Assembly: GCF_044324875.1 (NCBI RefSeq)
Contig: NZ_CP172185.1
DNA length: 64,000 nt
Direction: 5' to 3' (one strand)
Source: Escherichia coli
GTDB taxonomy: Bacteria; Pseudomonadota; Gammaproteobacteria; Enterobacterales; Enterobacteriaceae
Both the position numbers and the translations under genes were made by a program. The stretch's first letter is position 1. Each line of letters opens with the position of its first letter. Positions 21,284 to 22,813 of this stretch are shown piece by piece. The notes under the pieces are model-generated. The model was not told the DNA's origin, made no database searches, and saw only the letters and a program-made list of their open reading frames with translations.

Positions 21284-22813
21284 TCACCGTATTCTCTGAA
21301 ACAGGCCCCAAATCGTCCCAATGATATTATTCACTGTCATGTTAGTTGTGCATAACATCCATGTACCAAGCATAGGATCGCCAAATAAAAAGCGGATATC
21401 TGTAAGTTTATCCGATGACGACGACACAATAACGGCCTGTCTGATACGATACCCGGGTATTTCACGGGTATTTGTTACCTCATGATTTCGTTCTATGATC
21501 CCCAGAACATAAGACCCCACGGAATAAACACTTCCGACGCTCGCTGGCCGCCCCGCTTCTCCTCTTGGCCCCTGTGGACCTGCCGGACCGCGTTCACCTG
21601 TATACCCTCTTGGCCCCTGTAGACCTGTCTGCCCGCGTTCACCTGTATCGCCCTTTGGCCCCTGTGGACCTGCCGGACCGCGTGCACCTGTTTCACCTTT
21701 TGGTCCCTGTGGACCACGCTCCCCCTGGGCTCCCAGCTCTTTCCATTCAGACCAGGGGCCATTACCGGTAAAATTACCAGTAACAGTTCTTACGAACTTT
21801 CGTGGTGGGTTCCAGGTTGTATATTCATGCTGGCAATATCCCCATGCACCAACTCTTACCTGAAGATAACCCGCTCTCTGAATCGGATAATTATTTTCTC
21901 GTGTAGCCCCACTGTCTGATGGCTGATAATAATCACCCTGATCGGTCACTCGTCCCAGTCGGTTCAGATCACCATTCAGCAGTTGTCCACGGGCTGACTC
22001 TCCTCTTGGTCCCTGAGGACCTTCCGGACCACGTGCACCTGTTTCGCCCTTTGCTCCCTGTGGACCTGTCGGACCGCGTTCACCTGTTTCACCTTTTGGT
22101 CCCTGTGGTCCTGCCGGGCCGCGTTCACCTGTTTCACCCTTTGCTCCCTGTGGACCTTCCGGGCCACGTTCACCTGTATCCCCCTTTGGTCCCTGTGGAC
22201 CTGCCGGGCCGCGTTCACCTGTTTCACCTTTTGGTCCCTGTGGACCTCCCGGATCTCCTTTATCCCCCTTAGGGCCTTTTTCTCCTCGCTCACCCTTTTC
22301 TCCCTTCAGACCCTGAGGGCCTTCCGGACCACGTGCACCTGTTTCGCCCTTTGCTCCCTGTGGACCTGCCGGGCCGCGTTCACCTGTTTCACCTTTTGCT
22401 CCCTGTGGACCTTCCGGACCACGTGCACCTGTTTCACCTTTTGGTCCCTGTGGACCTGCCGGGCCGCGTTCACCTGTATCGCCCTTTGGTCCCTGTGGAC
22501 CTGCCGGACCGCGTTCACCTGTTTCACCTTTTGGTCCCTGTGGTCCTGCCGGGCCACGTGCTCCTGTTTCACCTTTTGGCCCCTGTGGCCCGGTAATGCC
22601 TCTTTCACCACGAGCGCCGGTATCCCCTTTCTCTCCTCGTGGTCCCCGGGCAGATGCTGCTCGTTTCCGGGCTTCCTCCGCCTCAGATGCCGCGGACTCT
22701 GCTCTGTGCAGTATGGACTGCACCACAGCCTCCAGCTCTGACAACGCCTTCGGATAATAAGGAGCATCTTCCATCTCCATCAGAAATTTATTCAGTGTTC
22801 CCGGTGAAGAATC
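21284..22813 (-). pseudogene. stf: Side tail fibre (Stf), C-terminal 506 codons, separated from its N-terminus by IS66
   Basis: In-frame continuation of fragment 25513..25760 once the IS and one duplication copy are removed (sum 1770 nt = 590 codons); long collagen-like GXY repeats. Confidence 0.85.

Follow-up and report, generated by a model that had tools for sequence, protein, structure and literature searches.

What does a long run of Gly-X-Y codons encode in an Escherichia coli genome, and can it still set the length of a phage fibre? The question is raised by a stretch of 64,000 nucleotides (contig NZ_CP172185.1 of RefSeq assembly GCF_044324875.1), here called the window, in which such a run lies in the side tail fibre gene (stf) of a prophage. 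The array very probably encodes the collagen stalk of a lambda-type side tail fibre, in a lambdoid E. coli prophage where the gene has been inactivated by an insertion sequence (IS) and where related alleles differ in length by whole repeat units. Collagen stalks in the side tail fibres of E. coli prophages, and their variable length, were already described in 2012, and the array thus belongs to a known kind.

The Gly-X-Y coding array occupies positions 21545-22645 on the minus strand, within an open reading frame (ORF) called at 21284-22780, and its anatomy can be read directly from the translation. Three blocks, with 45, 27 and 21 triplets (93 altogether), make up 837 of the 1,101 nt of the array. 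The parts of stf on this side of the insertion are, in the direction of translation:

21284 to 22813, minus strand: 3' fragment of stf, residues ~84-589 of the reconstructed protein
21284 to 22780, minus strand: ORF of 498 aa called within the 3' fragment, from an internal ATG
22646 to 22813, minus strand: stretch between the end of the IS and collagen block 1, on the N-terminal side of the collagen
22241 to 22645, minus strand: collagen block 1, 45 Gly-X-Y triplets, ~seven 15-aa units and a divergent end rich in GEK and GDK
22238 to 22240, minus strand: one additional Gly codon between blocks 1 and 2, which interrupts the Gly-X-Y register (GDPGGPQG)
21995 to 22237, minus strand: collagen block 2, made of five 15-aa units and GPRGES (27 triplets)
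21734 to 21994, minus strand: non-collagen insert of 87 aa (261 nt) without a Gly-X-Y pattern, predicted pyocin-knob fold
21545 to 21733, minus strand: collagen block 3, 21 triplets
21284 to 21544, minus strand: C-terminal tip domain, 86 aa and stop codon

The initial annotation had placed a long Gly-X-Y array at 21540-22640, very close to where it was found, and the peptide that it quoted, GPQGPKGETGERGPAGPQ, is present in the translation. It had also described the array as uninterrupted, which does not hold in view of the extra Gly codon and the 261-nt insert, and as built from units on a 27-bp scale. The DNA repeat unit is instead 45 bp, or 15 aa, with the consensus GPAGPQGPKGETGER. Tandem Repeats Finder gave a period of 45 for both arrays, and the self-identity of the array is 0.76 at an offset of 45 and 0.71 at 90, as compared to 0.47 at 27, which in the autocorrelation is the background level for any multiple of 9. 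A 27-bp unit was rejected since both methods give 45 bp.

The composition is that of a collagen-like sequence. Pfam Collagen (PF01391) matches the array with an E value of 1.1e-45, the X position is occupied by Pro (45%), Glu/Asp (35%) and Ala (12%), and the Y position by Arg/Lys (44%), Thr (19%), Gln (18%) and Ala (10%), the commonest triplets being GPQ, GER, GPK, GET and GPA. The array far exceeds what is expected by chance, and no other run of at least six triplets was found in any frame of the whole window. It also contains 24 exact direct repeats of at least 25 bp, the longest being 51 bp, and six of them (up to 35 bp) span the 87-aa insert. Homologous exchange in E. coli can use repeats of this length, and they could support recombination in the array, which agrees with the initial description of it as recombination-prone.

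The gene that bears the array is split, a state absent from the initial annotation. Upstream of the 3' fragment lies a complete ISCro1-like element of the IS66 family, and beyond it the start of stf:

25509 to 25760, minus strand: 5' fragment of stf, 83 aa of the collar domain (PfN, PF08400), with a stop codon supplied by the end of the IS
25513 to 25520: 8-bp target-site duplication GAAGAATC, on the side of the stf 5' fragment
22814 to 25512, minus strand: ISCro1-like IS66-family element, 2,699 bp
24782 to 25459, minus strand: tnpA of the element, Pfam/NCBIfam matches above cut-offs
24435 to 24782, minus strand: tnpB of the element, Pfam/NCBIfam matches above cut-offs
22844 to 24415, minus strand: transposase (DDE) of the element, Pfam/NCBIfam matches above cut-offs
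22806 to 22813: 8-bp target-site duplication GAAGAATC, on the side of the stf 3' fragment

The element has imperfect terminal inverted repeats, starting GTAAGCG and GTAACCG, and over its full 2,699 bp it is 99.93% identical to a RefSeq-annotated ISCro1-family copy in strain TUM9803. The insertion point in stf is at codon 83-86. In silico excision of the element, together with one of the two duplicated target sites, gave a single uninterrupted frame of 589 codons. The junction between the IS and stf did not occur in any of the 5,426 complete E. coli genomes searched. The stf of the window is a pseudogene and inactive, and since the IS separates the collagen from the anchoring collar domain, the array cannot set the length of any fibre here.

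The restored protein of 589 aa has the order collar, linker, collagen, knob, collagen and tip. The assignment to a side tail fibre, made already in the initial annotation, is borne out by the N-terminal domain and by the position of the gene after J. PfN matches the 5' fragment with an E value of 2.8e-28, and the collar is homologous to residues 1-94 of lambda Stf in PDB 9e7m (phmmer E 3.4e-30, with an alignment that covers residues 3-94 of chain Ta). In Ur-lambda, twelve Stf N-terminal domains form a collar at the gpV/gpM junction, which anchors four trimeric side fibres, and these fibres bind OmpC and make adsorption faster; the part of lambda Stf that corresponds to the linker consists of a flexible linker and, after it, a trimeric bundle (PMC12617516). 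The linker between PfN and the collagen is ~53 residues long in the restored protein and rich in Ala and Glu.

The 87-aa insert is, according to its AlphaFold model (predicted local distance difference test score, pLDDT, 84.3), a globular beta domain of the pyocin-knob fold. Foldseek matched the model to the R1/R2 pyocin fibre knobs 6ct8, 6cl5 and 6cl6 with a probability of 1.0, template modelling (TM) scores of 0.67-0.68 and E values of 4-7e-4. A sequence search gave no PDB match for the insert, so that the likeness is one of fold only, and its homologues at 41-72% identity carry the name 'pyocin knob domain-containing'. The 86-aa tip belongs to no family in Pfam (even at E values up to 1), NCBIfam or PHROGs, and has no sequence match in the PDB; phmmer against 1.84 billion representatives returned its own cluster only, and its model (pLDDT 65.6) matched no PDB fold. 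It is weakly collinear with other Stf-type tips (pairwise E 0.002-0.007), the motifs behind the alignment being VGS[FY][VI]L, GTW..C and G[LI]F[QE]RI. From its position at the end of the fibre it is presumed to be the putative receptor-binding end.

Do relatives of this gene differ in the length of the stalk? The initial annotation had proposed that such arrays can vary fibre length, and had suggested comparing repeat numbers among related prophages. The tip sequence was found by blastn at 30 places in 22 of 5,426 complete E. coli genomes, and 13 intact copies of stf were extracted from complete genomes, 11 of which were parsed segment by segment. The full-length copies (529-616 aa) were taken from the complete-genome loci; the protein-database search listed, for short queries, proteins of at most ~1.7 times the query length, and it listed none of these copies for the full-length query either. 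In the 11 parsed copies the non-collagen segments have constant lengths (136, 1, 87 and 86 aa) and share 94-100% identity with those of the window, while the collagen varies: block 1 has 35, 45 or 55 triplets, block 2 has 17, 27, 32 or 37, and block 3 has 15, 20 or 21. A further 20 alleles from the protein database, which are without the GG break, have blocks of 19, 24, 29, 34, 39 or 44 triplets and of 10, 11, 15, 16, 20 or 21. The non-collagen lengths of 136, 87 and 86 aa are constant in the 13 intact copies and in these 20 alleles.

All steps in length are of five triplets, that is, one 45-bp unit, save for a difference of one triplet which is tied to two alternative endings of block 3, GEAGRP or GQPGQP. 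The insertions and deletions among relatives are all multiples of 3 and nearly all multiples of 45. Collagen totals range from 35 to 102 triplets, as compared to 93 in the window, and block 2 of the window equals that of the prophage of strain B771 minus exactly one unit. The unit-wise length polymorphism of the family is thus a direct observation. The proposal that the array can vary fibre length stands for the related prophages, which differ by whole 45-bp units, and fails for the IS-split gene of the window; on the whole, the initial observation is partly confirmed and its interpretation partly supported.

One allele shows a change of another sort. In E. coli TUM1886 a fusion joins block 2 to the final part of block 3 (...GPAGPQ followed directly by GPRGEAGRP), and the knob is deleted. 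This knob-less allele of 457 aa (WP_264831588.1) is present in two prophages of the strain (loci L010 and L016, both at 3001-4374), which suggests gene conversion between the prophages or double lysogeny. Genomes with the allele of the window have a median of 16 matching places each, which are other collagen-bearing copies of stf, and because genomes hold so many of these, exchange between prophages is possible.

The search for the allele outside bacterial genomes was negative. The stf gene had no megablast match in 50,697 phage genomes, and the matches of the C-terminal half (tblastn) were collagen-driven or weak, with at most 76% coverage and 30-45% identity; no sequenced phage carries this allele. 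The exact proteins of 589 and 498 aa are absent from a collection of 15 billion proteins. One of the related database proteins, P0002 (295 aa, 151 member sequences), consists of the first 18 residues of the DUF4376 protein fused to the middle of the stf collagen; it reflects a genuine rearrangement, or else a chimera that assemblies produce repeatedly at this repeat.

The repeat number, or the array as such, might be partly an artefact of assembly, with the repeat collapsed or expanded. Short-read assemblies do often break here: many of the database relatives (P0001-P0017) are marked 'partial' and come from short contigs (0.4-1.6 kb) whose ends fall within the collagen array. That the exact protein was not found elsewhere also points in this direction. 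However, the frame of the window is intact, its block architecture and unit register match those of the 13 complete-genome copies, and the difference from B771 in block 2 is one clean unit, so we regard an artefact as improbable.

A second explanation is that the 3' fragment, with its 498 codons from the ATG at 22780, is expressed by read-through from the IS as a free surface or adhesive collagen-like protein. The IS genes have the same direction as stf, which makes read-through transcription conceivable, and NCBIfam models of the Scl and Lcl adhesins show a similarity that is driven by the collagen. The ATG, however, is not preceded by a Shine-Dalgarno-like sequence or by a promoter-like site, in-frame stops separate it from the transposase gene, and inspection of the sequence, with no predictor applied, revealed neither an LPXTG motif nor an obvious export signal. 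A protein without the collar could not join the virion. The reading as an Scl1, Scl2 or Lcl adhesin was rejected, since the scores of 191, 180 and 179 bits are far under the NCBIfam cut-offs of 325, 500 and 400, and the similarity is confined to the Gly-X-Y repeats. Judging from these sequence features, expression of the fragment seems unlikely, and we find a free adhesive protein very hard to believe in.

There is hardly any room for an intact, working side tail fibre whose length the array now tunes in this strain. The collagen frame does stay open over 498 codons, and other strains have intact counterparts, yet the complete 2,699-bp element with its 8-bp duplication stands between the collar and the rest, the 5' fragment ends after 83 aa, and J is split as well, so that the sequence already refutes such a fibre unless the IS is itself an assembly error. 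We give practically no credence to a non-coding tandem repeat or satellite with an incidental Gly-X-Y pattern, whatever its 45-bp periodicity and its GC content (59% as compared to 52% in the window) may suggest, since only the Gly-X-Y frame is open across all blocks and joins conserved flanking domains, the lengths of all insertions and deletions and the Pfam Collagen match fit a coding sequence, and the conservation of the frame across relatives already refutes it.

The collagen stalk of an IS-inactivated side tail fibre is then the reading to follow further, and a picture of how such a fibre would work can be put together. In the restored fibre the collar domain would dock on the tail tip, and a short helical linker would lead from it to two collagen blocks, of 45 and 27 triplets, on either side of a one-residue kink. 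The knob, the 21-triplet block and the 86-aa tip would then follow. The collagen would act as a stiff spacer that fixes the reach of the tip. With the rise of 0.288 nm per residue given for collagen (Ghosh et al. 2012, PMC3368898), the 279 residues of the window correspond to a stalk of ~80 nm, one unit to ~4.3 nm, and the family to ~30-88 nm. The near-identical 45-bp units would allow unequal recombination or replication slippage to gain or lose whole 15-residue units with the flanks left intact, and recombination between different blocks could delete the domain between them. The ISCro1-like insertion at codon 83-86 cuts the collar from this stalk. Collagen-like repeats have been proposed as recombination hotspots in phages (PMC7242381).

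Several points weigh against this reading. The triple helix and the trimer of the window protein are carried over by analogy from experiments on two related proteins, EPclA and EPclB, and not on EPclC, which it resembles most. The mutational mechanism, whether RecA-dependent exchange, slippage or exchange between prophages, is deduced from end states only. The receptor role of the tip is presumed from the position of a domain with neither a family nor a confident fold, and the product of the DUF4376 gene downstream, which falls in no Tfa family, is only assumed to take part in assembly. The repeat count of the window could not be checked against reads, and many of the database relatives come from short-read assemblies, which break or possibly collapse in the array; the 13 complete-genome copies show the same pattern as these relatives.

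Which known system does the protein resemble? The prophage collagen-like proteins of enterohaemorrhagic E. coli, EPclA to EPclD, were described by Ghosh et al. (2012, PLoS One 7:e37872, PMC3368898), who showed that EPclA and EPclB are trimeric with a true collagen triple helix; the type example of EPclC is ORF-401 of the P-EibA prophage in ECOR-9 (PMC3368898). The window protein fits the EPclC architecture, as judged by architecture and motifs and not by alignment to the named EPclC sequences (ORF-401, ECED1_1681 and ECED1_2081). It has PfN at the N-terminus, in one ORF with the collagen after removal of the IS, and two collagen regions, the first with the conserved break G-X-P-G-G-P-X-G (here GDPGGPQG). 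The preferred triplets and X and Y residues match (GPK, GPQ, GPA, GER, GET), the C-terminus is unrelated to PfC (PF06820), the gene has the tail-fibre position in a prophage, and the collagen varies in length between alleles. The PCoil region may be short or absent, with ~53 residues between PfN and the collagen here as compared to 88-116 aa for the PCoil in EPcl proteins. An Eib/YadA-like gene lies downstream, as in the P-Eib prophages. The differences are that the collagen regions of the window are 217 and 63 aa long as compared to 106-118 and 75-117 aa in the listed examples, that the domain between them, with no match to the Pf2 repeat (PF03406), is predicted to fold as a pyocin knob, and that the window copy is a pseudogene. 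ED1a is absent among the 30 listed of 31 megablast matches, and among the 22 blastn matches, for this allele.

With lambda Stf the protein shares the homologous collar domain and the gene position after J, and a trimer would be expected for it as well. Both genes have natural loss-of-function alleles, a frameshift in the stf of laboratory lambda and the IS in the window. The stalk of lambda Stf is instead described as coiled-coil proximal and distal domains and not as collagen. Neither the lambda tip nor the Tfa chaperone appears to be related to its counterpart in the window, the 86-aa tip and the DUF4376 gene respectively. The likeness to the R-type pyocin knobs (PDB 6CL5, 6CL6, 6CT8) is one of predicted fold (TM ~0.67, 24-26% identity), but the pyocin knobs stand in series near the fibre tip, whereas the insert is a single knob between collagen helices. 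Streptococcus thermophilus phage antireceptors and ORF8 of the virophages Guarani and Sputnik also have collagen-like repeats proposed as recombination hotspots, and deletions within the repeats of ORF8 change the virophage host range (PMC7242381, PMC5601072). The unit in Guarani is 27 nt as compared to 45 nt in the window, and the proteins are different.

The lesions of the prophage are not confined to stf. An element of the IS21 family likewise interrupts J, the gene of the central tail fibre:

28922 to 32371, minus strand: 5' part of J
26284 to 28921, minus strand: IS21-family element, 2,638 bp, with istA at 27154-28800 and istB at 26382-27380
26278 to 26283 and 28922 to 28927: 6-bp target duplication CTCGTT of the IS21-family element
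25819 to 26283, minus strand: 3' part of J, C-terminal receptor-binding domain (PF12421)
20694 to 21269, minus strand: DUF4376 gene, directly downstream of stf and next to stf in all relatives

Removal of the IS21-family element in silico restored a J of 1,302 codons. Thus stf and J, both host-recognition genes of the prophage, are disrupted by IS, and as both are split the prophage cannot build either adsorption fibre. With both fibres lost it is unlikely to spread alone as an infectious phage, and the array is a relic in a decaying prophage. The structural region at 29070-49523 is 98.4% identical to the B771 prophage, which is annotated and looks intact.

The gene order J, stf and DUF4376 is common to the window and the annotated relatives, although in some of the latter J and stf are separated by lom or by one or two small genes. 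The DUF4376 gene matches PF14301 (E 2e-20) and the 'tail fiber protein' families of PHROGs, and no Tfa family; its product is presumed to be a candidate accessory or assembly partner of the tail fibre. ISCro1-like IS66 copies recur in related prophages, within the stf-DUF4376 module or beside it. In TUM9803 the copy interrupts DUF4376, F1022 has one downstream of the module, strain 135 has copies on either side, and in AR_0085 a copy precedes an stf pseudogene. Such copies lie in the relatives' loci L001 (878-3576), L003 (1-2156), L011 (1-1649 and 5168-6983) and L012 (4815-6834), and their recurrence could reflect an insertion hotspot or repeated spread within lineages.

Other features of the prophage and its surroundings were also observed. 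A third IS, of the IS21 family, is found at ~58.0-59.8 kb on the plus strand (istA at 57999-59021, istB at 59018-59800), in the early region between the side of the Q antiterminator and the replication genes. Just downstream of stf and DUF4376, at 18373-19968, lies a gene for a YadA-like trimeric autotransporter, with a 99-bp tandem repeat of 2.2 copies inside it (18941-19153). It looks like an Eib-type prophage cargo gene, and the gene in the same position in the relative NRZ14408, a partial pseudogene, is annotated as 'immunoglobulin-binding protein'. It is followed by a gene with sigma-70 region 4 and a helix-turn-helix motif (17856-18311). The region 4711-17492 holds the aerobactin operon (iucABCD-iutA), for which many chromosomes and plasmids of E. 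coli have copies with 100% identity, and after the operon a gene for a transporter of the major facilitator superfamily and transposase genes of the ISL3 and IS256/Mutator types, which abut the end of the prophage.

For annotation, the finding means that the ORF of 498 aa for a 'collagen-like protein' represents the 3' portion of an stf gene split by an IS, and for assembly quality that the array marks a spot where short-read assemblies break or may collapse. It is also conceivable, though we think it rather unlikely, that the stalk is a quantised molecular ruler, with a three-fold spread of lengths, in fixed steps, under selection to match the depth of the O-antigen or capsule of the host, and with blocks that act as recombination cassettes for dropping or swapping the knob, as seen in TUM1886. 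If so, the repeat number itself would be a determinant of host range or adsorption rate, and not neutral slippage noise. The family is a clean natural series of fibres, nearly identical apart from how many 15-residue units each contains, and this series could serve to test the effect of fibre length on adsorption.

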